Both the position numbers and the translations under genes were made by a program. From the NCBI GenBank assembly GCA_965262915.1, contig OZ253564.1:2784001-2848000 (forward strand): DNA of 64,000 nucleotides. The letters run 5' to 3'. This document shows positions 1-25,556 of this stretch, piece by piece. This stretch comes from Candidatus Spongiisociaceae bacterium (GTDB lineage: Bacteria; Actinomycetota; Acidimicrobiia; Spongiisociales; Spongiisociaceae). Each line of letters starts with the position of its first letter. The stretch's first letter is position 1. The notes beneath the pieces were generated by a model. It did no database searches, was not told the origin of the DNA, and worked only from the letters and a program-made list of their open reading frames with translations.

Positions 1-1
1 G

Positions 2-226
2 GCGATCCCCGTCGCTGACCCGCGGATCAAGCGGGAACGGGTACACCTCTCGATCGACGAGGCCGGCTCCGCAGTCTCCAAGGGCTGCCCGTTTGCAGCA
101 AGATGCCCGGAGAGGATGGACGTGTGCAACTCCATACGGCCGGAACCACTCACTGTGGAACGAGATCACTGGGTTGCCTGTCATCTGTTCAGCGTCGACA
201 GCAGCCCTGGCTCGACAGCGCTCTGA
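2..226 (+). CDS. C-terminal end of oligopeptide/dipeptide ABC ATP-binding protein (partial, runs off window; not in ORF track)
   Basis: Frame 2 reads AIPVADPRIKRERV...GCPFAARCPERMDVC...HWVACHLF, the Cys-rich C-terminal domain of OppF/DppF; TGA 224-226. Confidence 0.85.
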   Translation, partial: AIPVADPRIKRERVHLSIDEAGSAVSKGCPFAARCPERMDVCNSIRPEPLTVERDHWVACHLFSVDSSPGSTAL

Positions 227-518
227 TCTCAGCCGACCCGCCGACCCGCAACGTGACCGGAGTTGATCGAGTTGTTACCGACGGTGCCACCCACATGGCG
301 TAGGGATGTCGAGCCTATGAGGTGCCAGGGGTGGGGTATCAGCGACAGAGGTGTTTGGACGTAGAGGCTTCAGCGCCAGTTCGTAGGTGGAGACTGGCAC
401 CCGTTCGCCTCGAGGAGCATCCCGAGTTCGAGGAGAACGCGAAAAGTCTCCAATCGGTCAATCCGATTCGCGAGACTAGGGTTTGCCATCCCGATCCCGA
501 GAGAAGGAGGAACTCAGG

Positions 519-2327
519 ATGAAAGCTCTTCGACATGAGAAACTGCGCCTGCGCCATACCCTGTTGATCGTGTCCGTTGTGTTTGCCATGGCGGTCGCAG
601 CGTGCGGTTCGGACGACGATGGCGAGACCGCCACAACAACCCAGGCGGCCCAGACGACGGCAGCCACCCAGGCGGCCCAGACGACCACGACGGAAGCCAT
701 GGCGATGGAAGCCGAACTCTCTGATGCTACGAGGGTTCCGACCATACGGTTCATGGGACCGTCCGCAGGATACGAATCGCCGCACTTCGAAGCCAACAAT
801 CGCATGTTCGCAGAGTGGGAAAAGCTAGGGATCACGGTCGAGACGACTTTCGTCCCCGACTGGGGAGGTTTTTCGGCAGCAGCCGAGCAGCGCGACTGGG
901 ATATGGCAGCCGCCGGATACGTCGGTAATATCTTCCGAATCGATCCTGATCAATTGCTGTCCCGGCCGCTATATGGCGAATTCGCCGGCTCCAGCAACTA
1001 CGGCGACTGGGTTTTCGACGAGTACGATTCCCTTCTCGAGGCCTCCAAGGTCGAACTCGACGTTGACGCACGACGTGAACTCGTGTGGAGACTGCAAGAG
1101 ATCCAAGCACTGGACATCCCGGTAGTTGTTTCTTATCACCCCTCCGAGGTTTACACCTGGAACAAGAATGCGTATACCAACGTCGTAGCAGGCGTCGGAA
1201 CCGGTCTGTACAACTTCTGGAACTTCGTAGGCGCCGAGCCTATAGGAGACGACAAGATCTACCGTATCGCCATCGAGGGGTTCTTCCGGTCGATCAACCC
1301 CACGGCTGCCAACGACTACGACAGCGATGTCGAGATCCACAACCTGATCTATGACAGCCTGGCCAAACCGGACCCGACCGGTGTCGTGGTTCCCTGGGCA
1401 GCCGAGAGTTGGAGCTTCCCCGAGCCTTCAGTCGTTGACGTCGTAATCCGGTCTGGAATGACCTTCACGGATGGCGAGCCCGTAACGGCCGAGGATGTGA
1501 AGTTCAGCTTCGACTATCTCAAGGAATGGGAAGTAGGTCTTTACCAGAATGCCCTGGCGCCTGTTGAGTCCGTTGATGTAGTCGACCCTCTCACCGTCAG
1601 GATCAACCTGTCCGGCCCGACCGCAACAGTGACGTCCGGCGCACTGTCACAAGTGCTGATTCTCCCGAAGCACATTTGGGAGAATGTCGTCGCCGACGAA
1701 GGACTGACCCATCCTTCTGAATGGACCGAGACCAACATGATCGGAAGCGGTTCGTACAAGTTGAAGAGCGCTTCCAGCGAGGCTGTGGAGTTGGCGAGGA
1801 ACGACGACCATTTCGACCCGCCGACGTCCGAAGGTTTTCTGACCCTCTACTTGGCGGACAACCAGGCGGTCTTCCGTGCACTCCAGGATGGGACTATCTA
1901 CTTCCATCAGGTGGCAAGCCTTACTCCGGCGGGTGCCACCCAGGCCGCTAACGAGCCCCATTTGGAACTCGGTGAGGTCGGAGGTATCACGGACCGGTGG
2001 ACTGCTTTCAGTATGAGAGACGACTCACCGTTCCAGGACTATCACCTCAGGCATGCTCTGGCCCACACGTACGACTACGCAACCACGGTCGATGTCATCC
2101 TCCAAGGCTACGGAGCCCCGGGACAGGGCACGATCGGACCTGGGAACACCTTCTGGCAAAACCCGAACATCCCGCATGAGGAGATGGATGACGGTGTGCC
2201 GCATTGGCATCAATTCGATCCTGCCAAGGCGAGGAAGATCCTGGAGGACGACGGGTACCGATGGGACGACGAAGGCAATCTCCACTACCCGGAGAACCAC
2301 GTAACACAGCTCCACTACAGTGGTTAG
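519..2327 (+). CDS. ABC transporter substrate-binding lipoprotein, family 5 (apparently circularly permuted)
   Basis: RBS AAGGAGG before ATG 519; lipobox AVAAC; Thr/Ala linker; family-5 motifs IYDSL, WAAESW, FTDGEPVTAEDVKFS. Confidence 0.9.
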   Translation: MKALRHEKLRLRHTLLIVSVVFAMAVAACGSDDDGETATTTQAAQTTAATQAAQTTTTEAMAMEAELSDATRVPTIRFMGPSAGYESPHFEANNRMFAEWEKLGITVETTFVPDWGGFSAAAEQRDWDMAAAGYVGNIFRIDPDQLLSRPLYGEFAGSSNYGDWVFDEYDSLLEASKVELDVDARRELVWRLQEIQALDIPVVVSYHPSEVYTWNKNAYTNVVAGVGTGLYNFWNFVGAEPIGDDKIYRIAIEGFFRSINPTAANDYDSDVEIHNLIYDSLAKPDPTGVVVPWAAESWSFPEPSVVDVVIRSGMTFTDGEPVTAEDVKFSFDYLKEWEVGLYQNALAPVESVDVVDPLTVRINLSGPTATVTSGALSQVLILPKHIWENVVADEGLTHPSEWTETNMIGSGSYKLKSASSEAVELARNDDHFDPPTSEGFLTLYLADNQAVFRALQDGTIYFHQVASLTPAGATQAANEPHLELGEVGGITDRWTAFSMRDDSPFQDYHLRHALAHTYDYATTVDVILQGYGAPGQGTIGPGNTFWQNPNIPHEEMDDGVPHWHQFDPAKARKILEDDGYRWDDEGNLHYPENHVTQLHYSG

Positions 2328-2340
2328 GAGCGAAGGAATT

Positions 2341-2371
2341 AAGGGTGGGGGCGATACAAGCCCCCACCCTT
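2341..2371 (+). terminator. Perfect 12-bp hairpin after SBP gene (terminator or mRNA-stabilising stem)
   Basis: AAGGGTGGGGGC-gatacaa-GCCCCCACCCTT; weak U-tail. Confidence 0.7.
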
Positions 2372-2464
2372 CTCGGTATTCGTTCGATCGAGCAAACCAC
2401 TAAGTGCTGAAGGGTTTTCATCGACGTCGGCCCACATGGCGGTTCGATGGGCGATTGAAGCGAG

Positions 2465-3778
2465 ATGATGCGAGCGGCTAGGCAGATCGTCGATGTCGAT
2501 ATCGGCGGGGCCGAACTGGGATCGGGTACGCGGTTCGCGAACGGCAGGTTGATCCTCGACCCCACCGAGGTGGCGGCGATGGTGGAAGAGGATGGGCGGA
2601 TCCGGCAAGCCCATGTTCACGTTGTGCAGCCTGGGGATGATGTGCGCCTCGTACACGTTCTCGACGTCGTGCAGCCCGTCGCCCGGATGAACGGCAGGAA
2701 CCAGGCGGTGTTCCCGGGTATTCTCACCCCACCCGAGCAAGTCGGGATGGGTCCGGTTCTGAGGATGAACGGACTCAAGGTGACCGTGCTGGGCGTGATA
2801 CCACCCGTCGATTCCTTCTTGACCCAGCAAGAAGGAATCCTCGAGATGAGCGACAGATCCGCGGATCTGTCGCCGCTCACCCGCGAACCTCACGTGGTGC
2901 TCGATCTGGCCGTAGATCCCGATATCGAGCCGATGGCAGCGGCCGAAGCCTATCGCAATGCCGCCCTGCGAGTCGCCAAGTACATCGGTGAGATGGCCGC
3001 CGACCATATCTCTGCAGGGGACATCCCCGAGGCTGTCGAACCGGTATCGGATCCGGCCCGGGACTCAGGCCGCCCCTTGCGTCTGATCCACATCTGTGAG
3101 GTATCGTCCTTTGGGCCTTTGTTCGATACGCTGATCATCGGCAGGTCGGCGCGCAATATGTTGCCGACACTCGTGTCGCTCCATGCCATGGCGGGTGGTG
3201 CGGTCGTCTCCGCCGACTACCACTACGCGGGCCAACGCAACTACACCTGTTACTACCAAGCGAATCCAGTTGAGAAAGCCGTCGTCGGTGTTTCTCCGAG
3301 TGGATCGGAGTTCCTGGGAACGGTGGTTCTTCCGGTTGGGATCGATGACACCAAGAAGCGTGCCGGGGCTGCCTTCGCGGCCCATCTTGCCGAGCTATCC
3401 GGCGCGGAGGGCGCCGTCATTACCGCGGTGGCCGGTGGCAACGCCCACCTAGACGTCATGTTCGCGGTGCGCGAGTGCGAGCGTAGGGATATCCCGACTG
3501 TTCTTTCCATCGTGGAGATGGCGGGTTCGACCGGTGCCGACCCGGGCATGGTCGACACGGTTCCGGAGGCAAATCTCATGGTGTCGACGGGCAATCGAGA
3601 GGAACTGATTGTTCTTCCCCCACCCGGTACTGTGCTGGGTGGAGCCAACCTGCTCGACGGGCCACAGGATGAGAGCGGCGGCGAGGACGCCACCGGCGAG
3701 CTACGGGTGCCGCTTCGAACGATTGTCGCTTCCAACAACGAGATGGGAGCATGGCGAATAGGAGCAACCTTGTCATGA
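2465..3778 (+). CDS. Glycine/sarcosine/betaine reductase component B alpha/beta-like subunit (GrdE/GrdI family), paralog 1
   Basis: VQPGDDVRLVHVLDVVQP, GGAVVS...YQANP, GGNAHLD, MVSTGNREE; translationally coupled to grdB-like gene (ATGA). Confidence 0.85.
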   Translation: MMRAARQIVDVDIGGAELGSGTRFANGRLILDPTEVAAMVEEDGRIRQAHVHVVQPGDDVRLVHVLDVVQPVARMNGRNQAVFPGILTPPEQVGMGPVLRMNGLKVTVLGVIPPVDSFLTQQEGILEMSDRSADLSPLTREPHVVLDLAVDPDIEPMAAAEAYRNAALRVAKYIGEMAADHISAGDIPEAVEPVSDPARDSGRPLRLIHICEVSSFGPLFDTLIIGRSARNMLPTLVSLHAMAGGAVVSADYHYAGQRNYTCYYQANPVEKAVVGVSPSGSEFLGTVVLPVGIDDTKKRAGAAFAAHLAELSGAEGAVITAVAGGNAHLDVMFAVRECERRDIPTVLSIVEMAGSTGADPGMVDTVPEANLMVSTGNREELIVLPPPGTVLGGANLLDGPQDESGGEDATGELRVPLRTIVASNNEMGAWRIGATLS

Positions 3779-5097
3779 ATGTTGCCAGGAGCGGCACGAT
3801 CAGAGTCGTTTCCTACCTGAACCAGTTCTTCGGTGGTCTCGGTGGGGAGGAGGCCGGGTCTATAGCGCCCTATGTTGCGGAAGGCGCCGTCGGATCGGCC
3901 AAGCTTCTCGAGCATCTGCTGGGCGATCGGGGAATCGTCGTGGCCACCGTGATCGCCGGGGACAACCACATGGCGGAGCACCCCGGTGCCGTTGAGAGCG
4001 TCGTCGGACTCATCCTGGACCGCCAACCGGACCTAGTGGTGGTCGGGCCGGCCTTCCAGGCCGGGCGATACGGTGTTGCTAGTGCGGGGATATGCGCGTC
4101 CCTGCACGATGCCGGTGTACCGGCCGTCACCGGGCTGCATCGTGAGAACCCCGGTGTCGATATGAACCGTTCCAAGGTTTACGCAGTGCCGGCGGACGCC
4201 AGCGCGGCGGGCATGCGGGAAGCAATGGAGAAGATGGTGCGCCTCGGTGAACGCCTGGCGCGGGGTGCCGGGATCGGTACGGCCGCCGATGAGGGGTTCA
4301 TCCCGCGCGGAATCCGGCAGAACACGTTCTCCGAGCGCAACGCCGCCGAGCGGGCGGTCGGGTCGCTCGTGCGAAAAATACGGGGTGAGCCGTTCGAGAC
4401 CGAAATACCACTCCCGGTATACCACCGGGTAACTCCCTCGTACCTGGCCTCCCCGCTGCAGGATCTGACGCTTGCCATCGTGACCGAGGCGGGCGTGGTC
4501 CCGAAGGGCAATCCCGATCGTCTCGAGTCAGCCCGCTGCGGAAAGTGGCTCACATATCCACACGATGATCTCGATGAGCTGTCGGCCGACGGCTACGAGA
4601 CCATCCACGGAGGTTTTGACAACGCCCCGATCTGCGCGGACCCGAATCGGGCGATCCCCTTGGATGTTCTTCGCGAGTTCGAGCGTGAAGGAGTGTTCGG
4701 ACGCCTGCACGAGAGGTACTACGTCACCACCGGCATGACCATGGCGATTGCCGACGCCGAGCGGATCGGCCGCGAGATCGCGGCCGATCTGATCGGGAAC
4801 CAGATCCAGGCCGCCATCCTCACCTCCACCTGAGGGACGGGAACGCGTTGCGGGGCAACGCTTGCACGCGAGATCGATGCTGCCGGGATACCCACCGTGC
4901 TCATAACTCCGATGCCCTCTGTGGCAGGCAACATCGGCGCCAACCGGATCGTGGTCGGAACTGCCATCACGCACCCGCTGGGGGCACCCGAACTGGGATA
5001 CGACCAGGAGAGGGAGCTTCGCAGGCAGATGGTGGCGCGGGCTCTGGAGGTTCTCGCCGAGCGGGTCGAAGGCCAGACGGTGCGCCAGGCTTCGTGA
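3775..5097 (+). CDS. grdB: Glycine/betaine/sarcosine reductase family selenoprotein B, Sec at in-frame TGA 4831-4833
   Basis: YLNQFFGGLGGEE, GPAFQAGRYG, VPKGNPD, HGGFD, DPNRAIPLD; frame continues through TGA as LTST-U-GTGTRCGATLAREID...GANRIV...HPLG to TGA 5097. Confidence 0.9.
4845..4861 (+). promoter_or_regulatory. Candidate bacterial SECIS element
   Basis: GCGTTGC-GGG-GCAACGC perfect hairpin with G-rich loop beginning 11 nt after the UGA. Confidence 0.75.
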
Positions 5098-5223
5098 GGT
5101 GCGCGGCGCAAGCGCAGGAGATGTGCGGGTCGGAACCCAAACCGGACTAAGCCTCCGACGATCGGTGAGAGAAGACCGGCGAGCGACCGTACAAACGGAG
5201 AGATGTCCACGTAGGGAGACAGA

Positions 5224-6516
5224 ATGAGCCGGCATGTGGCAGGACGGATTGACGGCAACGGTCTGTACCAGTCGCGCATAGCGCGCGGAGGTGACTGGTT
5301 CTTCATGGCGAGCCCGCCGGTGGACGAACATGGGCGAATTCCAGCTGAGGTCGAGGTCCCGGCGCCCTATACGCTCAGCCCGTCGGCGCATGTCCGAAAC
5401 CAGACCAAGTATGTGTTCGAGCAGTACGGCGAGTTGCTCGACGACATGGGCGCAACCTTCCAGCACGTTGCGCAGGTCGAGCAGTACATACAGTGGAAGT
5501 CCCATGCCGACGGCTATCTCGAAGTTAGCCGCGGCACCGGCTTCCTGGACTGGAACCGTCCCAGCAGCGCTCTGATGGAAACCGGCGACTTCATTCCGGA
5601 GGGAATGGTGGTGTCCCCCAGCGCATTCGGGTTCGTTCCGCGGCCGGGTCTGGAGGGCAAGGAGATCCGCTCGACGGGGCTCGCGTACGCTCGCAAGTAC
5701 CCGGAATTCGGTCCCAGCTACACCCATGAGGCTCCGTTCAGCGAAGTCGTCCTCGCCGGGCCCTACGTCTTTTGTACCATCTGGGCTTCCGACTACGAGA
5801 CGGGAGTCCATCCGGACGTGATACTCCCGGATTGGGTCTGGTGGGGCCAGGAGATCCGCAACGAGGCACTGTGGGGAATGGAGGCCCTGCGCCGGAAGCT
5901 GGAAACCGGTGGAACGTCGATAGAGAACGCGGTCCATTGCACGGTGCTGCTCAACGAGATCGAAGATCTCTACGAGCTGGACCTGGTTTGGAAAGAAGCG
6001 TTCGGTGACAGTCCGCCCGCCCGCACCGTCACACCTGTACGCGGGCTGGGTGCACCCCGCTGGGAGGGAGCCAAGCACCATGCCGAGGGCTCCATGAAGA
6101 TGGAGATCCAGTTCAGGTCGATCCGACCGGACCACGGGACCGTCAAGGAGATCATCGAGGTTGAGGGTCAACTCGGGATCGACCCCGCTGCTGTCAAGGC
6201 GGGGGATCTGCTCTGGGTCTCGAGCCAGTTCGCCGGAGGGACCAAGGGCCTCGTAACGGCCCCCGATGCGCCCAGTCAGGTTGACTTCCTTTTCCGCCGC
6301 CTGCGTGATATTTGCGAAGCAGGTGGGACGACGCTGGATCAGCTGCTTCGACTCAGGGCGTACGTCTCCGATCCGAAAGACGGGTATGCCGTCTATGACG
6401 GTCTGCGAAAGTACATCCCTAGTGACCCGCCCTGCGTTGTTGTAGCCGGGGTTCCCGGGCCATTCCAGGTGCCGGGGTGTACTGTGATGATGGATGCCGT
6501 TGCGTACGCGCCGTGA
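5224..6516 (+). CDS. RidA/YjgF family protein with three tandem domains
   Basis: Three Rid-like repeats (GGDWFFMAS..RPSSAL; AGPYVFC..VHCTVLL..PPARTV..MEI; AGDLLWVSSQ..LRLRAYV..PPCVV..DAVA). Confidence 0.8.
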   Translation: MSRHVAGRIDGNGLYQSRIARGGDWFFMASPPVDEHGRIPAEVEVPAPYTLSPSAHVRNQTKYVFEQYGELLDDMGATFQHVAQVEQYIQWKSHADGYLEVSRGTGFLDWNRPSSALMETGDFIPEGMVVSPSAFGFVPRPGLEGKEIRSTGLAYARKYPEFGPSYTHEAPFSEVVLAGPYVFCTIWASDYETGVHPDVILPDWVWWGQEIRNEALWGMEALRRKLETGGTSIENAVHCTVLLNEIEDLYELDLVWKEAFGDSPPARTVTPVRGLGAPRWEGAKHHAEGSMKMEIQFRSIRPDHGTVKEIIEVEGQLGIDPAAVKAGDLLWVSSQFAGGTKGLVTAPDAPSQVDFLFRRLRDICEAGGTTLDQLLRLRAYVSDPKDGYAVYDGLRKYIPSDPPCVVVAGVPGPFQVPGCTVMMDAVAYAP

Positions 6517-6654
6517 GATCGCGGCCCCGGTGCGGGGATTCGTAGGGCGCGGTGATCATTGGCGTATGGCGTTGGGGTACCGCGCCCCCTCCCCCGGCGC
6601 TGATTCGACGGCTTTCCCGTACGCGACCGGCTCGAGCCGCCGCGGGTCGGGCCC

Positions 6655-7641
6655 ATGACACCAAGCTACATACTGCGACGGCTCGGTTATGTAACTCTCA
6701 ATCTGTTGGTGATCGTGACGATTGCCTTCTTCCTGTTCAGGCTCGTCCCCGGCAACCCGGCCGACATCATGGTGGGTCCGCTGGCCAGCGAAGAACTGAA
6801 GCAGACGATCATCGACCGTTACGGTCTCGACGACCCGTTACCGCTCCAGTATGTGAAGTACATGCGTTCGCTGGTCACCAGTGACTTGGGCGCCTCGTTG
6901 ATGACCAACCGCCCCGTCAGAGAAGTTGTCTTCAGATCGTTCTCGAACACCTTGGTTCTCGTGCTCGGCATCTTCGTGGTCTCGTTCACGGCCGGTGGCC
7001 TCATCGGAGCACTTCTCGGCTGGAAGCGCGGTACCTGGGTTGAACGTGTCGGCGGAGCTTTGGAACTCCTGATACGAGGGGCGCCCACTTTCTTCGTGGG
7101 CGTCATCTTGATCCTGATCTTTTCGATAACCCTGGGGTGGTTGCCATCCACAGGGATGCGGAGTGGCGGCTTTGAGGAGACGAACCTGTTCCGCATCTAC
7201 ACGAGTTCCGACTTTCTCAAACATATGATCCTGCCGGTCGTCACCGGCTCCCTCTACGCGCATGTCGTACCCGCCTTGATAATGCGAAACACGATGATCC
7301 ATCTCAAGCACGCGGACTTCCTCGATCTGGCGCGGGCCAAGGGACTGTCCGAGCGAGCGGTGATGATCCGCCACGGTGTCCGGAACGCACTGATGCCCCT
7401 GATCGCCGAGGGCTCTCAATTCCTCGGCTGGGCCGTCGGCGGCCTGGTAGCGATCGAGTTCGTGTTCTCATGGCCGGGACTCGGTCGTGAGATCGTCAAC
7501 GCGCTCGACGCCCGGGATTACCCGGTCGCACAGGGTGCGTTTCTCTCCATTGCGATACTGGTGCTAGTGGTCTACTTCCTGGCTGACCTTCTGGCCAGCA
7601 TGCTTGATCCTCGTGTACGGCGCCGGTCTTCGACCGACTAG
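6655..7641 (+). CDS. Peptide ABC transporter permease (DppB/OppB-like)
   Basis: PGNPA, YGLDDPLPLQY, ARAKGLSE, EFVFSWPGLG, RDYPV. Confidence 0.93.
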   Translation: MTPSYILRRLGYVTLNLLVIVTIAFFLFRLVPGNPADIMVGPLASEELKQTIIDRYGLDDPLPLQYVKYMRSLVTSDLGASLMTNRPVREVVFRSFSNTLVLVLGIFVVSFTAGGLIGALLGWKRGTWVERVGGALELLIRGAPTFFVGVILILIFSITLGWLPSTGMRSGGFEETNLFRIYTSSDFLKHMILPVVTGSLYAHVVPALIMRNTMIHLKHADFLDLARAKGLSERAVMIRHGVRNALMPLIAEGSQFLGWAVGGLVAIEFVFSWPGLGREIVNALDARDYPVAQGAFLSIAILVLVVYFLADLLASMLDPRVRRRSSTD

Positions 7642-7654
7642 GCGGCGGCACACC

Positions 7655-8530
7655 ATGTTTTGGAAACAGATAGCGCAAGCGCTGCGGCGGGACACGATGG
7701 CGCTTGCGGCCGGGGGGATTCTGGTGTTGTTCATAGCGATGGCGCTGCTAGGTCCCGGGTTAGCCCCCTACGATCCCGAAGAGATTCTCAGGGACGAGAG
7801 CGGCGCGGCGCTCGTGCTCGAGTTCCCCTCGTTGCGCCACCCGTTCGGGACCACGGATCTGGCGCGTGACATCTTCTCCCAGATCCTCACGGGAGCCCGC
7901 CCCGTGCTCATCGTCGGCTTCTGGGCAGCCTTGCTCCCGACCGGTCTCGGGTTGTTGCTAGGGGTTCTGGCCGGCTACAAGTCCGGGGCAAGCGACACTA
8001 TCGTTTCCCGATTCGTGGAGATCGCTTACTCCCTACCGTTCGAACCGGTTGCGATCGTTCTCATTTCTCTCATCAGCCCGAGCCGATGGACCCTCATTCT
8101 GGCGATCTCGCTCCTGTACTGGCGACGTCCCACGCGCGTGATCAGGAATCAGGTATTGACGCTGCGGGACACCGCCTTCATCAAGGCTGCCCGGGTGGCA
8201 GGCGCTTCCAGCCGGCGGATCATGTTCCGGCACCTGATACCCCTCGTCCTTCCGTTGGCGTTCGTATATATTCCGGTCGCGTTCGGCAACGCCATCCTTG
8301 CCGAGGCGTCGATCAGCTTTCTAGGTTTCGGAGACCCCCAGTCCCAGAGTTGGGGATCCATCCTCCGCAAGGCCTTTGATGGCGGTGCTCTCGACCTGGG
8401 TTGGTGGTGGATGATCGCGCCGGGACTAGCCATCACAGTCGTAACCTCATCCATGTTCTTTCTCACCCGCCCGTTCGAGGAGGTTCTCAACCCTCGGCTC
8501 GCCAGGGAACTTCCCAAGGAAAAGGCATGA
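7655..8530 (+). CDS. Peptide ABC transporter permease (DppC/OppC-like)
   Basis: HPFGTTDLARDIFS, AARVAGAS, EASISFLGFG, SWG. Confidence 0.93.
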   Translation: MFWKQIAQALRRDTMALAAGGILVLFIAMALLGPGLAPYDPEEILRDESGAALVLEFPSLRHPFGTTDLARDIFSQILTGARPVLIVGFWAALLPTGLGLLLGVLAGYKSGASDTIVSRFVEIAYSLPFEPVAIVLISLISPSRWTLILAISLLYWRRPTRVIRNQVLTLRDTAFIKAARVAGASSRRIMFRHLIPLVLPLAFVYIPVAFGNAILAEASISFLGFGDPQSQSWGSILRKAFDGGALDLGWWWMIAPGLAITVVTSSMFFLTRPFEEVLNPRLARELPKEKA

Positions 8531-9555
8531 ACGAGCTTCTGAGTGTGAGCGATCTCTCCATCGACTATCGAGCGGACGAAGAGTGGCGTCCTGCCGTTTC
8601 GGATGTCATGTTCACGGTCGAACGAGGGAAGATACTGGGAATAGTCGGCGAGTCCGGCTGTGGAAAGAGCACGTTGGCACGCGGGCTGATCCGGTTGTTA
8701 CCCGAGAATGGCCGGATCACAAGTGGCCGTGTGGTACTGGATGGCGTCGACCTGCTGGCCCTCACAGACTCCGATCTGCGGCGATACCGGTGGGACCGCG
8801 TGTCCATGGTGTTTCAAGGCGCCATGAACGTTCTGGATCCCGTTTTCCGGATCGGTGCCCAGATCGCCGAGGCCATCCGCTGGCACCGACCGGTCTCGAA
8901 GCGGGAGGCATGGGCGACTGCCCGGAGGCTGCTGGGACAAGTCGGGATCGAGGCGGACCGGGTAAGAAGCTATCCTCATGAGTTGAGCGGGGGAATGAAG
9001 CAGCGGGTGGGCATCGCCATGGCCATCGCTTTGGAACCTGATCTGGTGATAGCCGACGAGCCGACTACGGCCCTCGACGTGATAACGCAGGATGTCGTTC
9101 TCGGTCAGCTGATCAAGCTACAGCGATCCGCCGGCAACTCGATGATTCTGATCTCCCACGACATGGGGATCATCGTGGAGTCCTGTGACGACGTGGCGGT
9201 CATGTACGCCGGGGAGATCGTCGAGACCGGGAGTGTGGAAGATGTGTTTGCCGAGCCTGCACATCCGTACACGATCGGGCTCGTGAACGCCATCCCGAGT
9301 GCCGAAGCCGAGACCGATGCGGTCTCGATTCCGGGTCACCCACCTGCAGCAGGCGAGTGGCCGACCGGATGCCGGTTTCGTAGCAGGTGTCCCTTCGCAA
9401 CCGAAGGCTGTGAGGATCCGGTCCCATGGACTCAGCTCGATGAGAGCCACGGAGTTCGTTGCATCAGATATGCTGAACGACACGAGCTGAGGCGCCGGGG
9501 CGCCGAGCGCTCCGTCTGGGAGCGAGTAGCCGACTCGTGGGGAACATCCGCTTGA
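8527..9555 (+). CDS. Peptide ABC transporter ATP-binding protein (DppD/OppD-like)
   Basis: GESGCGKS, LSGGMKQR, ADEPTTALD, GCRFRSRCP; ATGA overlap with permease. Confidence 0.93.
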   Translation: MNELLSVSDLSIDYRADEEWRPAVSDVMFTVERGKILGIVGESGCGKSTLARGLIRLLPENGRITSGRVVLDGVDLLALTDSDLRRYRWDRVSMVFQGAMNVLDPVFRIGAQIAEAIRWHRPVSKREAWATARRLLGQVGIEADRVRSYPHELSGGMKQRVGIAMAIALEPDLVIADEPTTALDVITQDVVLGQLIKLQRSAGNSMILISHDMGIIVESCDDVAVMYAGEIVETGSVEDVFAEPAHPYTIGLVNAIPSAEAETDAVSIPGHPPAAGEWPTGCRFRSRCPFATEGCEDPVPWTQLDESHGVRCIRYAERHELRRRGAERSVWERVADSWGTSA

Positions 9556-10853
9556 GTACCGTCGAATTGGTTACACACCGCGTCAGCGATGTTCGATTCG
9601 GCAAGAAGACCCGGGTTTCGAATGGAGAGCTGGTGGTCTCGAAGACAGAGCTGTCGGATTTCCTGGAGAGGGACCCTCGCATCCCCGACCTGACGCTTCA
9701 CATTGCTCGCCCCGGCGACAGCACCCGTATCAATGGGATCCTCGACGTGATCGAGCCGCGCAGTAAGGACCCGGACAACTCCCACACAACCTTTCCGGGC
9801 ATCGGCACCGACTCGGTCTCCATCGGGGTGGGCCGTACTCACGCAGTGCGCGGGGTCACTGTTATGCCTGTCGGCCGCCTACCCGATGGGCGAGAGACGT
9901 TCGTGCAGGAGGACTCTCTCATTGATATGGCGGGCCCCGGCGCTCGGTACTCGCCGTTCTCGACTGTCCCGCACCTCGTTGTCGAATTCGCTGACGTTCT
10001 GGACGGGAATGACGGGGACTATGTGGCGGTAAGGCGTCTTGCGGCTATCCGTATAGCCCGGTTCCTTGCAGCACGAGCGGTGGGTGCCGAGTCGAGAGAT
10101 GTCGAGGTCTTCGCGCGACACGATCCGGATCACGACATCCACGATGAAACTGACCGCGGTGATAACGACCGGGATTCGATCCGCGTCGCCTACGTATGCT
10201 CCTTGATCTCGGAGGGGCCGCTCCACGACACGATGCTGTACGGCCAATCGACGGAGTGCCTTCAGCCCCGCTGGATCACCGTGCCAGAGCTCGTTGACGG
10301 TGCCCTGGTCAGCTCCGATTTCCATTTCTCCTGCCAGCGGACCCCCACGGTGCTGTATCAGCGCAACCCGGTTGTGGAGGCGATCAGGAATAGGCCTGAG
10401 TTGGTGCTCGACGGCGTGATCCTGACCCTGCGGTATGGATCTCACTCCGAAAAGCGCCAGGCAGCAGCCCGAATTGTCGAGATGTTGGTAGAACGGAAGG
10501 TCGATGGGGTGGTGACTCATCCAGCAGTTGGCGGTAACGCGCACATCGACGCTCTCAATATCGTCCAGGAATGTGAGAAGGCCGGCATAGTAACTGCTCT
10601 CATACTGCAGGAAATGGCGGGAGACAACGGCGGCGATCCGGGCCTGGTCGACTCGGTACCGGAGGCGGATCTGATGGTTAGCTCCGGGAACCGCGATCAG
10701 CTTGTCGATCTGCCGGAAGTGATACGCACACTGGGCCCGGATCGACTGCGAGATGGGACTCCTACGAAGGGACCGTTGCGACTATCACTCCGGCGCTACC
10801 TCTGCAGCACGAGCCAGGTCGGAGCGCACCGCATGACTGCAACCGAGGCGTGA
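9537..10853 (+). CDS. Glycine/sarcosine/betaine reductase component B alpha/beta-like subunit, paralog 2
   Basis: IARPGDSTRINGILDVIEPR, IDMAGPGARYSPFS, DGALVS, GGNAHID, MVSSGN. Confidence 0.87.
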   Translation: MGNIRLSTVELVTHRVSDVRFGKKTRVSNGELVVSKTELSDFLERDPRIPDLTLHIARPGDSTRINGILDVIEPRSKDPDNSHTTFPGIGTDSVSIGVGRTHAVRGVTVMPVGRLPDGRETFVQEDSLIDMAGPGARYSPFSTVPHLVVEFADVLDGNDGDYVAVRRLAAIRIARFLAARAVGAESRDVEVFARHDPDHDIHDETDRGDNDRDSIRVAYVCSLISEGPLHDTMLYGQSTECLQPRWITVPELVDGALVSSDFHFSCQRTPTVLYQRNPVVEAIRNRPELVLDGVILTLRYGSHSEKRQAAARIVEMLVERKVDGVVTHPAVGGNAHIDALNIVQECEKAGIVTALILQEMAGDNGGDPGLVDSVPEADLMVSSGNRDQLVDLPEVIRTLGPDRLRDGTPTKGPLRLSLRRYLCSTSQVGAHRMTATEA

Positions 10854-11072
10854 CAAGGAGCATTCCACCCAACCCACTTCTCGGCGAGGATCATCCTGAC
10901 CATGTCCCGTAGTACCGGACTGCCGGCGAGGTCGCCGGATCCTGGCACATTGGTCCGGATCCCACCTTTCCGAGTCGAAGTCCGCCCGCGAGATCCCGCG
11001 TCGTCCCGAGTGAGACAACGAGAAAGGGAGTTGGCTAGGTCTGGCGCCAATACCAATACGAATCTCCCTCAC

Positions 11073-11192
11073 CACCGCATCGCATACTCCAGTTACCAGG
11101 ACGACGGCGAACTCTACGACTGGGAGATTTGCATCCTCGATCTGGACACCGGTGTCGAACAACAAATCACCAATAACGTCGGCGGCGACTGG
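11073..11192 (+). pseudogene. Fragment of TolB/PD40-type beta-propeller repeat protein
   Basis: RIAYSSYQDDGELYDWEICILDLDTGVEQQITNN resembles a PD40 blade; flanks are not protein-like. Confidence 0.4.
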
Positions 11193-11568
11193 CGTGGTCT
11201 CCTTAGCCAAGAGCGGCTCGGGCTTCCATGCCGGGTAGGAGGTGTTGAAAGTATCATTGGCGAAGGCCACGCCGTCTGGTCCGGCGTCAGTAGCTCACGC
11301 CACTCGTTCGTCAAGTTGCTGACAATCTCGGGGGTCGTGGTGGCTTATCTGCTCGACGAGCCATCAGCTGTCGGTTCGCTACACCCCGAGCGGGACGATG
11401 CTCAACGGAAGAGACTCCCCACAGCCCGACAACCTCGAATCGAGGGGTGTCCGGGCAGGTTCCCGGCCAGCCTCCTCGACCACAGCATCGTGTAGCAATG
11501 TGTCATCGTATCCCCCGTAGCCTGGTCGCGGAGGATCAGTCTCGGGTTACCTGACTGTGGGAACGCAT

Positions 11569-11871
11569 TCAGCGGGACAGCGGTGGATTCGAACTCGCGG
11601 TCTCGATGCCGAGCAGCGAGGACCGTCTCTTGGGACGATGCTCGACTTCGACAGGGAACAGGCTCAACTGGGTGACGGAGCACACCGGGAATCCGGAACC
11701 GTTCTGGTCGGCTGACCTGAAATCGCCGACCCTGCCGAACAGCGGGGTGTGAGGGCGGGACGTGTCGGCCTTGTCGCCGATGGTTTCCGAGAGTCCCTTC
11801 TCGATGTTCCATACCGCCATCTCCTTCATCCGATGGCGGTGATCAGCGAATAGCGGACCGAACCGGAGCAT
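11569..11871 (-). pseudogene. Degraded amidase C-terminal fragment
   Basis: FGPLFADHRHRMKEMAVWNIEKGL...LFGRVGDF...VTQLSLFPVEVEH resembles amidase C-terminal region. Confidence 0.45.
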
Positions 11872-12048
11872 TCCGACCCGGGTAAGGTTCCTCTACCTGG
11901 CGGCTGTGATCGATGTCTGGTCAAGGCGGGTAGTGGGATGGTCCGTACGCAGCGATCTGACCACACCGGCCCGACCAGCCTACAAACACGCCCAACAGCA
12001 AAGGTGTCCAGCCGATGGGGGCATGCCAGTGCCACAGTGAGAGGTCGG

Positions 12049-15562: not shown

Positions 15563-17302
15563 GAGCCTGCTGATTTAGGGGTAGGTGGGGTGGCTGTGTT
15601 GGTGTGTTGGGGGGTGGTGTGTGTGCTGGATTGGGATTTCGGGGGTGGTTTCGGGGGGTTTGGTGGCCGTTTTGGGGGTGGTGGGCCGGTCCGGGGGCGG
15701 TTGGTTTTGGTTTAGGTGGTGGTGAGCGTCCAGCCGCTGGTTGTGTGGGCCACGTCGAGGTTGATGAGCCGTTGTAGGTTGATGGCTGCTGTTCTGGTGG
15801 TGAACCACATTTGGTTGGCTTTGGTTCCTTGGTATGGGACGTGTCGGGCTTTGCCGCGGGTGAGCCAGGCGATGCTCCGTTCGACGGGTGGCCGGTATCG
15901 GCGGTAGGTGGTTTTGGTTTCGTCGTCTGCCCAGCGGGCTTTGTTGGCGGCTCGTAGGTCGTGGTATTTGTCGACGACGATGGTGCGTCCTTTCTTGGCG
16001 GTGGTGCACCGGGCCCGTTTGGGGCAGTCTTTGCATCGCTTGGCGAAGGGGGCGGTACCGCCGGGGCGGATGCGGGCGGTGTGCCCGACGGGACAGGTCA
16101 CGGTTCTGGCTTTGGTGTCGATGTCGAAGTCGTCGCGGTGGTAGCCGTTTTCGATGTGGGGTTTGCGGACGATGGGTTTGGTGATGGGGGTGAGGTTGTT
16201 TTGGTCGAAGGTTTCGAGGGCGGGACCGGACCCATACGCCGAGTCGGCAATAACCTCGCTGTCGGGGGCCTGGTCGGCAACGAGGTCGGCAACCAGGTCG
16301 GCGTCGGGGGTGTTGGCCCCAGTTATCTTCGCGGCGGTGACCAGCCCGGTTTCGGGCTCCGCGGCTATATGCGCCTTGTAACCGTCCCGTTTGTGCGCCC
16401 GGGTCTTGTGACCATGCCGGGCGTCGGGGTCCACCGTGGATATGGTCCGGTCCTTGGCCACACGCCAGCGGCCCTCCCGCTCCGGATCGGCTTCCACGTC
16501 CTGGCCCGCCACCACACCCAACAGTCCCACAGCGTCGGCCTGCTCGCCGCTCAACTTCGCATCCTCGACCGCTGCGATGACCGCCAACGCGTCGGACACC
16601 AGCCCGTTGATCAGCTCAGAGCGGCTTTCGGGATCGGACCAGTCGCAGGACGGTTTCGCCCTCGAGTCGTAATCGTGAGCTACCAGCACCAGATCGGCCG
16701 CCTGCGGTATCAGACGACGGCAACGCCGTATCTGCGATGAGATCATTGTTACCGTGTCCTGGGTAGCTACCGCGTCGTCCAAGATGGTGGAATCCAGAGC
16801 ACGACGGTCCTTGCCTGCCAACACCCCACACTCGTCTATCACCCGCCGTACCGCGTCGAAGATACGCTCGGGACGGTCACTGGCCCGGAGTCTTGCCCGC
16901 CACAGGGTAAGCACCGTCGGGTGGAATCCCCCGTCGCTCAGCGACAGACCCGCCGCCGCTTTCCACGCTATATCACGCCGCAGACTCTGGATCGCTTCTC
17001 TATCCGACAGTCCCTCGAGCGCTTGGAGGACCATCACCACGGCGATCACCGGCCCCGGCACAGACGGGCGACCCCGCCCACTCCCGAACAGATCCGCGAA
17101 CATCTCGTCAGGGAACAGGCGGCGGCGGTTCTCGGCCAAGAACCGGTACACCGACCCCACAGGAACCAGATGCCACAGATCTGTCGTGTCCAAAAACTCA
17201 CGGTCAAAACTCTCAAAACCCTGCATAACCCCTACACTAATACCAACAAACCCAAAACGCGAACACCCCAAACCCCGATACAGCGATTAAATCAGCAGTC
17301 TC
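15563..17302 (-). mobile_element. IS1182-family insertion sequence
   Basis: IRs GAGCCTGCTGATTTA / TAAATCAGCAGTCTC (14/15); CTAG direct repeats 15559-62 and 17303-06. Confidence 0.9.
15712..17226 (-). CDS. IS1182-family transposase
   Basis: GRPSVP, LQALEGLSDREA, ALDST, STVDPDARHG, ADSAYG, YRRYRPPVER. Confidence 0.9.
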   Translation of the reverse strand: MQGFESFDREFLDTTDLWHLVPVGSVYRFLAENRRRLFPDEMFADLFGSGRGRPSVPGPVIAVVMVLQALEGLSDREAIQSLRRDIAWKAAAGLSLSDGGFHPTVLTLWRARLRASDRPERIFDAVRRVIDECGVLAGKDRRALDSTILDDAVATQDTVTMISSQIRRCRRLIPQAADLVLVAHDYDSRAKPSCDWSDPESRSELINGLVSDALAVIAAVEDAKLSGEQADAVGLLGVVAGQDVEADPEREGRWRVAKDRTISTVDPDARHGHKTRAHKRDGYKAHIAAEPETGLVTAAKITGANTPDADLVADLVADQAPDSEVIADSAYGSGPALETFDQNNLTPITKPIVRKPHIENGYHRDDFDIDTKARTVTCPVGHTARIRPGGTAPFAKRCKDCPKRARCTTAKKGRTIVVDKYHDLRAANKARWADDETKTTYRRYRPPVERSIAWLTRGKARHVPYQGTKANQMWFTTRTAAINLQRLINLDVAHTTSGWTLTTT

Positions 17303-17729
17303 CTAGCCGCTGTTCGGCGGTTCCTGGGCTTGCTCGAACTGAAGCGGTTAGACCTCCCCGGACGCGGACTGCTTCTCCCGGTCGCTTGAACCGGCTTCAT
17401 GGGGTTTTTGGGTGATCGCCATCACTCGGGGACCAGGATGGCGGTGTCGGCGGAGTAGGTGACATCCCCGGCCTTGGCGATCCACTCCCGGATGCTGGGT
17501 AGGTGCCAGTCACCGAAGCCGATGCCGACGGGCGGATCGTCGGGGAGGCCGTAGACCTGGCACGCCTGTGGGCGCAGGTACCACCAGCCGTCACTAGCTT
17601 CTCGATAGAGTTACTGGTGTTCTCGGCGAAGCGAACCTGGCGAGCGGAGGCTGTCATACCCACGAGGATTGTGTGTGGATCGTCCTCGAATTGGTACGAG
17701 ATGCGAGCGGATTCCCACGACGCGACTAG

Positions 17730-18557
17730 GGCGTGTTCACCTAAAGTTACACTGATGTGATATCATTACGATATGACAATAACACAAGAACAATACCAAC
17801 TCATAGTAGACGTGTTCCCGAAACCCCGCGGTACCGTCAAGGTATCCAACCTCCAAGCCCTCAACGGCATCCTGTACGTACTGGAGCACGGCTGCAAGTG
17901 GCGGGCGCTTCCCGAACGGTTCGGGAACTGGCACACCGTTTACATGCGGATGAGCCGCTGGGCGGCCAGCGGCGTCTTGGACCGGGTGTTCCAGCGTCTA
18001 CAGCAGGAACAGCTCATCGACCTCGAAGTTCTGGGCCTGGACAGCACGTCGGTCAAGGTTCATCCCGACGGCTGTGGTGCTCTCCGAAAGCGGGGTCCCC
18101 AGGCCATCGGTCGCTCCCGGGGAGGGTTGAACACCAAGATCCACATGGTCGCGGCCAGCGCTTGTAGCGCCGTCTTATTCGCTCTTTCCCCAGGTCAGGA
18201 CCATGATGCTCCCCATGGGCGGGAGCTCCTCAAAAAGATGGGCCCACGAAAAAAGGAGCAGGAAGGGGAGCAGCTAGAGCTGTTCCTGGTAGCGGACCGC
18301 GCCTATGAAGGGGACGAAACACGGCAACTGGCCGTCGCTCTGGGCTACACGCCGGTCATCCCACCCCGAAGCAACCGCCGCCACCCGTGGGACTACAACC
18401 GTCCGATATACAAGCGACGGAACGAGGTCGAACGGCTCTTCCGACGGCTCAAAGGCTACCGGCGTGTCTTCACCCGCTACGACAAACTCGACGTGATGTT
18501 CCTAGCATTCATCACCCTCGCGCTCATACACGACACGCTCAGAAACGTGAACACGCC
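17730..18557 (+). mobile_element. IS5-family insertion sequence
   Basis: Perfect IRs GGCGTGTTCAC / GTGAACACGCC flanked by CTAG on both sides. Confidence 0.9.
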
Positions 18558-18561
18558 CTAG
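17773..18561 (+). CDS. IS5-family transposase (single ORF)
   Basis: GCKWRALPERFGNW, LDSTSVKVH, GRSRGGLNTKIH, ADRAY, RNEVERLF, TRYDK; stop TAG lies in the target duplication. Confidence 0.92.
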   Translation: MTITQEQYQLIVDVFPKPRGTVKVSNLQALNGILYVLEHGCKWRALPERFGNWHTVYMRMSRWAASGVLDRVFQRLQQEQLIDLEVLGLDSTSVKVHPDGCGALRKRGPQAIGRSRGGLNTKIHMVAASACSAVLFALSPGQDHDAPHGRELLKKMGPRKKEQEGEQLELFLVADRAYEGDETRQLAVALGYTPVIPPRSNRRHPWDYNRPIYKRRNEVERLFRRLKGYRRVFTRYDKLDVMFLAFITLALIHDTLRNVNTP

Positions 18562-18676
18562 TGGGATCGAAGTACAGATACTCCCGTTAAGACCAAATGG
18601 GGATTGCATCGAATAGTGCCAACCGCTCGCCAGGACCGGTTTTGGTGTCACACCTCTCTATCCGTGCCGCGCCCCT

Positions 18677-19831
18677 CTAGCGGCGGAGCAGTTGCTTGAG
18701 CCGCCGAACGGCAGGCGTCCACAGCCACTCGGGCTCGGTAAACCGGCGATGGTTCTCGCCGGGCAACCCCATGGGGTCGTAGTAGCTCTTGTCGGAGTTC
18801 TTGCGCAGGTCGTTCGTTCGCTTCAGCACCCGCAAGTTGGCATAGACCGTCCCCTTGTGGGTCCAGCCCTGCCGCAGGTAGTTCCAGTTGTCGGGCGCCA
18901 GGTGCTGCGCCGCGGTGAAATGCCGCCATGCACGCTCGTTGTCGCCCACCGCCTCGAAGTGCAACGCCAGCTTGAACGTCGCTTCTGCCAGCAGCGTGTC
19001 GTCGTCGACGGGTTTGAGCCGCTCGGCTAGTTCTTTGCTCGACCAGACGTGCTCGCTGTCGGCTCCCCGCTCGATCCAGTCGCGAGTCGCCTGGGCAAAT
19101 GCGTTGTCGCCGACGCGAACCTTGCCGACGCCGAACCTGATGGTGGTCTTAGCCGGGTACACCCCTTCGTTGCTGCGAACGATGCGCCCGTCCTCGTCGA
19201 TCCACGCGGCCGACGGCACGGCCACCCAGCCGAACAGCGAGCTGATCTGGTGTGTCGGGTCCACGACGCACCGGTAGGTCGGCGAGGCCCGGTCAAACCA
19301 CTTGCCCGCAGCCTCGAGGCCCCCCGAGTCCTGCGCCACGCTGATCAGCTCGAACCGGTCCGGACCGATGGATTCGTACAGATCCTGCCAGGCCGGCAGG
19401 CTGATGCGGCATCCTCACCACGATGACCAGGTGAACAGCACAACCTTGCGGCCACGTAAGTCCGACAGCCTCAACGTGTTGCCGTTGCGCTCGGTCACCT
19501 CGAAGTCGGGGGCAATTGCGGATTCCAGCCCGACGCGACGGACTTCGGGCACCGAGCCGAGGCTCCACACGTCGCCGTCGCGCACGTACTTCTGGCCGAT
19601 CATGTCCGCGAAGTCCGAGTAGCAGAACCACACCCAGCCGTCGGCGTCGGCGATCCACGCTTCACGCTTGTTCGCCGGCAGCGGCAGGCACAGCTCGCCC
19701 AGGCACGCGCCTTGCGGCTTCATCTGCCAGCCGGTGGCGCCAGGCAGTTCGTCGATTCGCACCCACAGAGCCCCCGTGGCGTCGGTCCGCTGGGTGACCT
19801 CGTTCGTCTTGCCGTTAGCGAGGATGATCAT
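18677..19831 (-). CDS. Thioredoxin-fold (TlpA/ResA/peroxiredoxin-like) selenoprotein, Sec at in-frame TGA 19417-19415
   Basis: ORFs 19415-19897 and 18677-19339 are in the same frame; read-through gives APDF...[31 protein letters not shown]...ISVAQD. Confidence 0.88.
19384..19400 (-). promoter_or_regulatory. Candidate SECIS element
   Basis: mRNA CCUGCC-GGCCU-GGCAGG hairpin 14 nt downstream of the UGA, loop starts with G. Confidence 0.65.
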
Positions 19832-20159
19832 GATTGCTCCGCGAGAGCCGATTCGCCCGGCTAGGTAAGCGCTTCGCTGTGCGTTATGCCCGAGCATTAC
19901 TGACCGTAGTGCCCACAGGCGACGAAGGCCAGTACGCCGACGGACCGGTCACGACGAACAGCATGGGGCTGGCGCGAAATCATCGAAAGCCGAGGTCAGC
20001 GGCTCGGACCATGAGGGGCTCAGAACGGATCTCACGCGATCCTGGAACGTCTTCTTGGCTGAGGAGCGCAAAAGCACAGGTCAGGGGCATGAACAGCACA
20101 TAGGCTCAGCCGTGCGCATACACGTCGAGCGTCTCTGGATCGCCGTCATGAATGGCTCG

Positions 20160-20927: not shown

Positions 20928-20954
20928 ACTCATAATTAGAAGGTTCCTGGGCTA

Positions 20955-21130: not shown

Positions 21131-21158
21131 ATTCTATCCCCTAGAGGAGAAGAGCATC

Positions 21159-23164: not shown

Positions 23165-25556
<2,392 letters not shown>

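Follow-up and report, generated by a model that had tools for sequence, protein, structure and literature searches.

The closest described relatives of the system reported here are the clostridial reductases for glycine, sarcosine and betaine, in which a protein B (GrdB with GrdE, GrdF with GrdG, or GrdH with GrdI) works with GrdA, GrdC/GrdD and TrxA/TrxB (components as named in an excerpt of PMC9908766). Here we describe a protein-B-type gene set in a 64,000-nucleotide stretch of contig OZ253564.1 of a Candidatus Spongiisociaceae bacterium, a marine actinobacterium (positions 2,784,001 to 2,848,000, hereafter the window), where genes for a GrdB-like selenoprotein, two GrdE-like proteins (GrdE1 and GrdE2) and a three-domain RidA protein are interleaved with those of an ATP-binding cassette (ABC) importer. 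In clostridia it is a known design that several substrate-specific protein B sets draw on a single protein A and a single protein C, and in the textbook Grd mechanism no free imine is released. To our knowledge, the only substrates established biochemically for Grd-type selenoenzymes are glycine, sarcosine, betaine, D-proline and, lately, fluoroacetate, and nearly all Grd biochemistry known to us comes from fermenting anaerobes. We give somewhat better than even credence to the reading that the window encodes the third, substrate-specific protein B set of its genome, which joined an older importer/RidA operon and cleaves an imported nitrogen compound together with GrdA and GrdC, both supplied in trans.

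The window set resembles clostridial protein B in encoding a full-length GrdB-family selenoprotein with selenocysteine (Sec) at the family site and a GrdE-family partner with Cys in the pyruvoyl column, and in belonging to a genome with several B sets, one GrdA and one GrdC. It differs in scoring below every equivalog cut-off and forming a clade of its own, in having two GrdE paralogues of which one lacks the Cys, in being interleaved with an ABC importer and a triple RidA, and in its setting, a lineage without detected GrdD whose host is a high-GC member of the Acidimicrobiia rather than a fermenting anaerobe. It is also distinct from the GrdD-less grdA/grdC cluster of the same genome, being a satellite protein B with a second GrdE in an importer operon. 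The second point of comparison is the D-proline reductase cluster, in which PrdD and PrdE are paralogues of parts of PrdA for which an indirect, stabilising role has been proposed (an excerpt of PMC3091704). There too, extra non-catalytic proprotein paralogues are encoded alongside the enzyme, which makes this cluster the best precedent for GrdE1 beside GrdE2; the window set differs from it in its GrdE1, which is full-length and no fragment, in its GrdB-type selenoprotein, and in that no PrdC was found in the window. In the titles and abstracts searched, nothing links Grd protein B genes to RidA or an ABC importer, or places Grd systems in the Acidimicrobiia.

Selenocysteine codon, GrdB clade and operon conservation

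An in-frame TGA in the GrdB reading frame falls at the conserved Sec site of the family, in a genome equipped to decode it: selA and selB are adjacent (434 and 333 bits), and selD and tRNA-Sec are also present. The TGA is retained in three of three related loci (L030-L032), its motif matches that of a paralogous GrdB of the same genome (locus L008), and the same letters occur in contigs of two public runs from different studies (X5 and X13), one of which may itself have supplied this DNA. Across the 87 codons 3' of the TGA, the ratio of nonsynonymous to synonymous substitution rates (dN/dS) is 0.11-0.19. Conservation in relatives, identity in other runs and a constrained tail together argue that the TGA is no sequencing error, and by these comparisons it is a real Sec codon. 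Just 3' of it, a hairpin resembling a Sec insertion sequence (SECIS) is nearly invariant, with 17 of 18 bases at 4844-4861 identical across four loci; loop base 4854 varies in L032, and flanking base 4843 in two loci. Rfam gave no match anywhere in window positions 1-12000, the hairpin included, and the folding energy of the 76-nucleotide stretch 4825-4900 was not better than that of shuffled sequences (z = +1.1). Because folding energy gives no support, the case for a SECIS comes solely from the conservation of the hairpin. The selD gene (G000:C1:4560939-4561865) has an in-frame TGA of its own, and would therefore encode a selenoprotein SelD.

GrdB passes the broad model for selenoprotein B of glycine, betaine, sarcosine and D-proline reductases (TIGR01918, 462.1 bits, cut-off 65.45; residues 18-444 on model positions 1-429), and falls below the cut-off of each narrower one: glycine TIGR01917 (425.3 bits against 602.2), sarcosine GrdF NF040794 (458.1 against 800), betaine GrdH NF040795 (407.9 against 775) and D-proline PrdB TIGR04483 (84.5 against 300). 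The glycine-reductase cut-off is passed by 21 of the 25 full-length database homologues of GrdB. We built a tree of the part preceding the Sec from 51 rows, comprising 43 of 120 listed database proteins and eight locus proteins and including no labelled GrdF or GrdH. The window GrdB falls in a starred clade of nine operon-type rows, which is sister to seven further rows; both lie within a starred 23-row clade, which is distinct from the two other GrdB types of the genome and from the 11 rows scoring over the glycine cut-off. On this placement the window GrdB lies in a separate, well-supported clade, and by its scores it falls outside the curated glycine, sarcosine, betaine and proline equivalogs. 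The clade appears to be rare, as no GrdB with more than 45% identity to the window protein was found in 400 other sampled genomes of the class. Homologues of RidA and of GrdB come with matching sizes of their longest contigs in both listings (23201, 131161 and 828567), a weak hint that the two genes share contigs down to approximately 61-66% identity. A sequence search of the PDB with GrdB returned 0 matches.

The entire gene order recurs in three related Acidimicrobiia loci from metagenome-assembled genomes (L030, L031 and L032), and a further locus from a metagenome collection (L038) is apparently L031 deposited once more. Protein identities across the operon loci are 71-95%, and synonymous divergence (dS) among the four operon genomes reaches about 1. 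The ratio dN/dS is 0.06-0.21 in 26 of 27 gene comparisons, the remaining one having been excluded for a wrongly set frame; for GrdE1, GrdB before and after the TGA, and GrdE2 it is 0.11-0.21. By this measure the operon genes are under purifying selection, including the part of GrdB past the TGA. Amino acid change is faster in the Grd genes (dN 0.07-0.20) than in those of the transporter and RidA (0.03-0.09). Near-identical DNA is present in runs of eight studies, not counting the possible source run.

GrdE paralogues, GrdA and GrdC

The two GrdE proteins share 33% identity, and both score below the 780-bit cut-off of the GrdG model NF040793 (144.5 bits for GrdE1, 194.9 for GrdE2), while GrdE2 reaches 36 bits with the PrdA model TIGR04480 (cut-off 700). 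They differ in the column of the pyruvoyl precursor, where GrdE2 has Cys and GrdE1 has Gly, the latter in all four genomes (the window and L030-L032). [quoted passage not shown] According to an excerpt of PMC9908766, the pyruvoyl group of C. difficile GrdE derives from Cys242. Since the Cys266 column, which is Cys245-250 in clostridial-like representatives, agrees with this position, GrdE2 is predicted to be the cofactor-bearing proprotein and GrdE1 a non-processed paralogue.

A GrdE profile search of 1.84 billion representatives matched 1699 proteins, and Cys is found in the pyruvoyl column of 34 of 144 aligned rows. Sequences of the GrdE1 and GrdE2 types form neighbouring subgroups among the aligned representatives, so that the duplication would predate these four genomes. 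In PF09338 (P0219-P0368) there is a second Cys column (C211 of GrdE1, C221 of GrdE2), likewise with Cys in 34 rows, and eight rows have Cys in the two columns at once; much of PF09338 may consist of proteins other than pyruvoyl enzymes. Modelling of a complex between GrdB(1-360) and GrdE2 gave a score of 0.93, against 0.00 for the best of three controls, with runs agreeing in at least 92% of contacts and a predicted local distance difference test score (pLDDT) of at least 85 for the partner. In a benchmark of this score, 116 of 157 solved complexes came up to the same mark, as did 2 of 215 mismatched pairs, counts that are rough as author-made alignments were used. The model thus supports binding of GrdB(1-360) to GrdE2. 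No match to GrdE2 was returned by a PDB sequence search (0 matches).

No gene for GrdA, GrdC, GrdD, PrdA/C or thioredoxin was found among the open reading frames (ORFs) covered by two scans, one of 10 ORFs and one of 35 window ORFs, eight short ones (85-130 residues) lying outside them, and a genome-wide family search found the only GrdA and the only GrdC elsewhere. An earlier account of this DNA made from its letters alone (the sequence-only reading) had described this absence correctly. It had also called the module an orphan, which holds for the window only: a Sec-containing GrdA (one in-frame TGA; 3478236-3478676, minus strand; 190 bits, and 198.6 bits with NF040748) and a GrdC (3480213-3481613; 589 bits against a cut-off of 450) are encoded 690 kb from the operon, at 3.478-3.482 Mb, next to another GrdE (429 residues) and GrdB. 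GrdA and GrdC genes, mutually adjacent, are present in three of three other operon genomes. By comparison, GrdA is absent from two genomes in which the triple RidA has no Grd neighbours; in one of these, G004, GrdC was looked for too and is likewise absent. Of the suggested Sec-dependent pathway, a divergent protein-B-type module outside the curated equivalogs is supported, and its orphan status is not. Directly upstream lie an ATPase and an M24 hydrolase gene rather than a canonical grdA/C/D set, and, as given above, the scores stay below the curated cut-offs. Among the genes that the sequence-only reading had proposed to look for in the genome, namely grdA/C/D and selA/B/C/D, we found grdA, grdC, selA, selB, selD and tRNA-Sec; grdD was not found.

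The GrdD model reached at best 22.4 bits in this genome, against a cut-off of 350, and GrdD was found in none of three other operon genomes and none of 101 genomes of the order, in a search that included no GrdD-positive control genome and in which weak scores in control genomes indicate that it did run. GrdC is present in 12 of the 101. Throughout the order, GrdC and GrdA thus come without GrdD, as in this genome (C1:3478236-3484401, L007) and in L068-L072. A TrxB gene (398358-399254; 403.6 bits against 343) is of the housekeeping kind and unlinked to the operon. The third GrdE/GrdB pair of the genome, at 3.11 Mb (L008:6678-12140), has BKACE on one side and, on the other, a choline sulfatase (588 bits, passing its cut-off), which suggests a betaine- or carnitine-linked substrate for that pair; the same two genes also flank a GrdE/GrdB pair in L068 and L072.

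Several further observations concern the neighbourhoods of grdA and grdC. In the strain studied here, the GrdB next to grdC/grdA is split across two frames (L007:10231-14963, minus strand), through a frameshift or an assembly error, and genes for a clan-AA aspartic protease and a radical SAM protein lie between grdC and grdA; in relatives grdC and grdA are adjacent. Two relatives have genes for EamA, GrdE, GrdB, GrdC, GrdA and an aldehyde dehydrogenase in this order, and in L070 and L071 grdA is followed by genes for an aldehyde dehydrogenase, an alcohol dehydrogenase, an FGGY kinase and a DeoC aldolase.

Operon layout, importer and RidA

The operon occupies window positions 1-10853 and is co-directional, with ten genes by our count, nine of which are itemised in Table 1. 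From 5' to 3' they encode an OppF-type ATPase, a family-5 solute-binding protein (SBP), GrdE1, GrdB, RidA, two permeases, an OppD-type ATPase and GrdE2. The GrdB-like selenoprotein, two GrdE-like subunits and RidA described by the sequence-only reading were thus all found, on the plus strand, interleaved with the importer. The peptide-type importer that it took to be complete is so only if ATPase 1 is counted, the gene for which begins approximately 811 nucleotides 5' of the window (L009:13190-14227); this same gene bears out the statement that the operon extends upstream. Orthologues of ATPase 1 occupy the equivalent position in L030-L032, L034 and L049. Beyond it lies the M24 hydrolase gene, in divergent orientation (L009:11782-13020, minus strand).

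Table 1. Features of the operon, in window coordinates
Feature	Position	Strand	Matches and remarks
ABC ATPase 1 (OppF/DppF type), 3' end	1..226	+	PF00005 and PF08352; top NCBIfam models are dipeptide/OppF ATPases
Family-5 solute-binding lipoprotein (SBP_bac_5)	519..2327 (likely ATG 519; ORF from TTG 483)	+	PF00496, 179.5 bits
GrdE-like 1, 437 residues	2465..3778	+	PF09338, 236 bits; Gly256 in pyruvoyl-precursor column
GrdB-like selenoprotein	3775..5097 (ORF open from ATG 3751)	+	PF07355, 406.9 bits; TIGR01918, 462.1 bits
In-frame TGA, Sec codon (U361 in the 3751 frame)	4831..4833	+	
SECIS-like hairpin, stem of 7-8 base pairs, G-rich loop	4843..4862	+	starts about 11 nucleotides 3' of the TGA
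Three-domain RidA/YjgF protein (3x-RidA), 430 residues	5224..6516	+	PF01042, two stretches by sequence
ABC permease, OppB/DppB type	6655..7641	+	PF00528 and PF19300
ABC permease, OppC/DppC type	7655..8530 (ORF open from 7604)	+	PF00528 and PF12911
ABC ATPase 2, OppD/DppD type	8527..9555	+	PF00005 and PF08352
GrdE-like 2, 438 residues	9537..10853 (start GTG 9537 or TTG 9552)	+	PF09338, 270.6 bits; Cys266

The likely start of GrdB is ATG 3775, ten bases 3' of an AGGAG (3760-3764), and its database homologues have 352 residues as far as the TGA; its true stop is the TGA at 5095-5097. Stop and start overlap as ATGA between GrdE1 and GrdB and again between the second permease and ATPase 2, and the stop of ATPase 2 falls within the first codons of GrdE2 for either GrdE2 start. 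These junctions point to translational coupling, which would tie the Grd genes to the importer genes beyond mere adjacency. A promoter and terminator scan gave nothing usable (one promoter-like and nine terminator-like sites versus 2.5 and 6.6 in shuffled sequences). None of the runs in which this DNA occurs is listed as RNA. In run X19, contigs of 163-371 nucleotides with 0-2 mismatches lie on GrdE1, GrdB, RidA, permease, ATPase and GrdE2, and in X20 a single short contig with nine mismatches lies at GrdB; the RNA type of both runs is only guessed, and neither is proof of transcription. GC content at third codon positions (GC3) is 0.68-0.76 in the operon genes (483-10853), against mostly 0.77-0.86 in three other regions of the genome (L007, L008 and L009), and overall GC is 0.611 in the window against 0.644 in the genome, values compatible with acquisition from a lower-GC relative. 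Elsewhere in the window, positions 15712-28068 are dense in transposase genes (IS4/5, IS110, ISL3 and rve), and 48507-61315 hold defence-type genes (GmrSD-like, an ABC-3C middle component, and DUF6361 with a large helicase).

The importer is like Opp/Dpp/Nik-type systems, including opine binders, in consisting of an SBP, two permeases and two oligo_HPY ATPases. It differs in its SBP, the domain order of which appears to be circularly permuted: residues 76-247 match the C-terminal third (approximately 359-578) and residues 260-609 the N-terminal two thirds (approximately 8-356) of solved or curated OppA, DppA and AppA proteins, and orthologues in L034 and L049 with 47-54% identity have the same arrangement. 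An AlphaFold2 model of the SBP from a six-row alignment was unusable (pLDDT 45.6), and the permutation is thus read from sequence matches alone. The SBP reaches no equivalog, the best being Opp4A (101 bits against 650), and its relatives in the PDB bind peptides, nickel, agropinic acid and agrocinopine.

The sequence-only reading had recognised a triple RidA, and an AlphaFold2 model of the protein indeed has three YjgF-fold repeats (4-137, 175-300 and 308-428; pLDDT 87, predicted template modelling score 0.91). Three Rid domains per chain is an architecture named 3x-RidA in an excerpt of Niehaus et al. 2015 (PMC4433059). The window protein shares with 3x-RidA proteins its single chain of three YjgF-fold domains, and keeps the arginine of the 'PAR' motif in domain 2 only, where R267 aligns with RidA homologues and is invariant in 15 sequences. 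The protein as a whole reaches 49.8 bits with the Rid hydrolase model TIGR00004, for which 106.25 are required. R267 would correspond to the catalytic, carboxylate-binding arginine of RidA. In Foldseek, single RidA chains match one domain apiece, and the best full-length fold matches are the chorismatases FkbO/Hyg5 (PDB 4bps, 5ag3 and 5a3k; target-normalised TM score 0.60-0.64), compared by fold only. A chorismatase function was considered and dropped, the likeness being one of fold, at 11-15% identity, with no aromatic-pathway neighbours.

A role of RidA dedicated to the Grd product, as the sequence-only reading had it, is not supported, given the occurrence of importer and triple RidA free of Grd genes and the many unrelated nitrogen-catabolic contexts of the triple RidA. 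The triple-RidA family is sizeable, with 91 of 98 matches at 43% identity or more. In 38 triple-RidA loci, Grd genes are adjacent in four, all close relatives, although 16 of the loci are shorter than 6 kb and have no visible neighbours. In L034 and L049 the same importer goes with the triple RidA, and in place of Grd genes there are M20 peptidases, an amidohydrolase or an aldehyde dehydrogenase; neighbours elsewhere include Amidohydro_2, a pyridoxal phosphate enzyme, S15 and M24 peptidases and, in a Streptomyces, a 2-oxoacid dehydrogenase. It is from these Grd-free loci that we infer that Grd genes joined an existing importer/RidA operon, with RidA not a dedicated partner of the reductase. 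The closest Grd-free relative of the window RidA (70% identity) is that of L039 and L040. In both loci (L039:1278-5180), two diverged triple-RidA genes lie either side of a gene of the octopine/nopaline-dehydrogenase family.

The M24 hydrolase upstream of the operon has as its best curated model the dimethylsulfoniopropionate lyase DddP (107 bits against a cut-off of 600). A creatinase identity was dropped, as no Creatinase_N match was obtained at the thresholds used and DddP remained at 107 of 600 bits. In the Streptomyces locus (L037:6415-7923), an M24 hydrolase with 123 bits against the same cut-off lies near the triple RidA, which there is inside the 2-oxoacid dehydrogenase operon.

Proposed role, alternatives and significance

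The role of the operon is probably the breakdown of an imported nitrogen compound. In the scheme that we propose, the family-5 importer would take up one small nitrogen compound, and a protein B made of GrdB, GrdE2 and GrdE1 would cleave its C-N bond at a carboxymethyl-type carbon, the acyl fragment staying on selenium. GrdE2 would self-cleave at Cys266 to generate the pyruvoyl group, and the non-processed GrdE1 would act as a structural or specificity subunit. The fragment would then be handed to the single Sec-containing GrdA and to GrdC, encoded at a distance, with the housekeeping thioredoxin system as the presumed electron donor. As GrdD was not detected in the lineage, the chemistry past GrdA would differ from the clostridial textbook and probably does not end in acetyl phosphate by the textbook route. 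For the three-domain RidA, which is part of the older importer module, the most likely task would be to deaminate or hydrolyse an imino or enamine intermediate within that substrate family, alongside the Grd step or after it. For the substrate, an N-substituted glycine or an opine-like compound is a reasonable first guess, no more, from the weak hints that sarcosine models score best, that opine binders are among the relatives of the SBP and that an octopine-dehydrogenase gene neighbours related RidA genes. A more far-reaching version, which we regard as rather doubtful, is that some marine Acidimicrobiia use a new branch of Sec-dependent reductases in which one GrdB would pair with a heteromeric GrdE, one subunit pyruvoyl-bearing and the other not, to act on an imported N-substituted amino acid (opine-like, N-carboxymethyl or a peptide-like osmolyte) rather than on glycine, sarcosine or betaine, with a GrdD-free GrdA/GrdC that would not yield acetyl phosphate by the textbook route, and with RidA on an imino-acid branch of the same substrate.

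A number of points weigh against recruitment of a protein B set served by GrdA and GrdC in trans. The proposal is built on gene content, the Sec codon, conservation, the separate clade, the presence of GrdA and GrdC in trans and the Cys/Gly difference; the assembly of the subunits, the service of GrdA and GrdC to the module, the chemistry and the substrate class are our deduction. The pyruvoyl column was set by position and likeness, with no characterised sequence in the alignment. The complex model cannot tell GrdE2 from GrdE1, as near relatives of a genuine partner pass too, and it does not extend to the Sec-bearing tail of GrdB. With GrdB split and two foreign genes between grdC and grdA, it is uncertain how far this strain has an intact shared system, and without GrdD in the lineage the known acetyl phosphate route cannot run as described.

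Among the alternatives, the operon might serve an ordinary reductase for sarcosine, glycine or glycine betaine, the substrate being released by prior hydrolysis of the importer cargo (such as a glycine-containing peptide or a creatine-like compound). The best NCBIfam models are indeed those for sarcosine, GrdF at 458 bits and GrdG at 145 and 195 bits, but these and the other scores are far below the cut-offs of 800, 780, 602 and 775. The GrdB clade likewise stands apart from the 11 glycine-cut-off rows, in a tree in which GrdF and GrdH clades are not represented, and the genome already has two further GrdE/GrdB pairs, one of them beside choline sulfatase and BKACE. A hydrolase for the first step could be sought in the divergent upstream M24 protein, of the creatinase/prolidase/DddP superfamily and present here and in L030, and peptidases of the M20, S15 and M24 families accompany the triple RidA at other loci; the M24 protein, however, has only 107 bits against the DddP cut-off of 600, and Creatinase_N was not found in it at the thresholds used. 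Taken together, we consider an ordinary reductase unlikely.

Decidedly less probable, and close to the sequence-only reading, is a self-contained and new Sec-dependent cleavage pathway that would run without GrdA and GrdC and yield an imine or enamine for the triple RidA to hydrolyse. The 690 kb between the module and grdA/grdC, and the presence of two GrdE paralogues and RidA within one operon, would fit such a pathway, for which D-proline reductase is a precedent, as this PrdA/PrdB-type enzyme works without proteins A and C (an excerpt of PMC3091704). However, GrdA and GrdC are found in four of four operon genomes, GrdB is of the full-length type (462 bits with TIGR01918) and not of the PrdB type (84.5 against 300), and importer and triple RidA are paired without Grd genes in L034 and L049, Grd genes being adjacent in only 4 of 38 RidA loci, 16 of which are under 6 kb. 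Finally, it is very improbable that the Grd genes were inserted recently and lack a function, or that they are decaying remains, within a working importer/RidA operon, since the adjoining stretch rich in insertion sequences, an operon GC3 (0.68-0.76) under that of three other genome regions and the faster evolution of the Grd genes (dN 0.07-0.20 versus 0.03-0.09) are set against intact frames, dN/dS of 0.11-0.21 for GrdE1, both sides of the TGA in GrdB and GrdE2, a conserved Sec codon and hairpin, overlapping starts and stops, and the same gene order in four genomes separated by dS of up to about 1.

We therefore continue to favour a protein B set that was added to an importer/RidA operon and has its partners GrdA and GrdC encoded in trans. 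The location of a separate GrdB clade within an importer operon means that the SBP gives a direct experimental handle on the substrate, and the GrdE pair, with and without the cofactor Cys, offers an opening to the role of a non-catalytic subunit. With no GrdD found across the order, one may ask by what route these bacteria resolve the GrdA-bound selenoether. If the substrate is derived from an invertebrate, the operon would add a selenium-dependent step to the nutrient exchange between host and symbiont.

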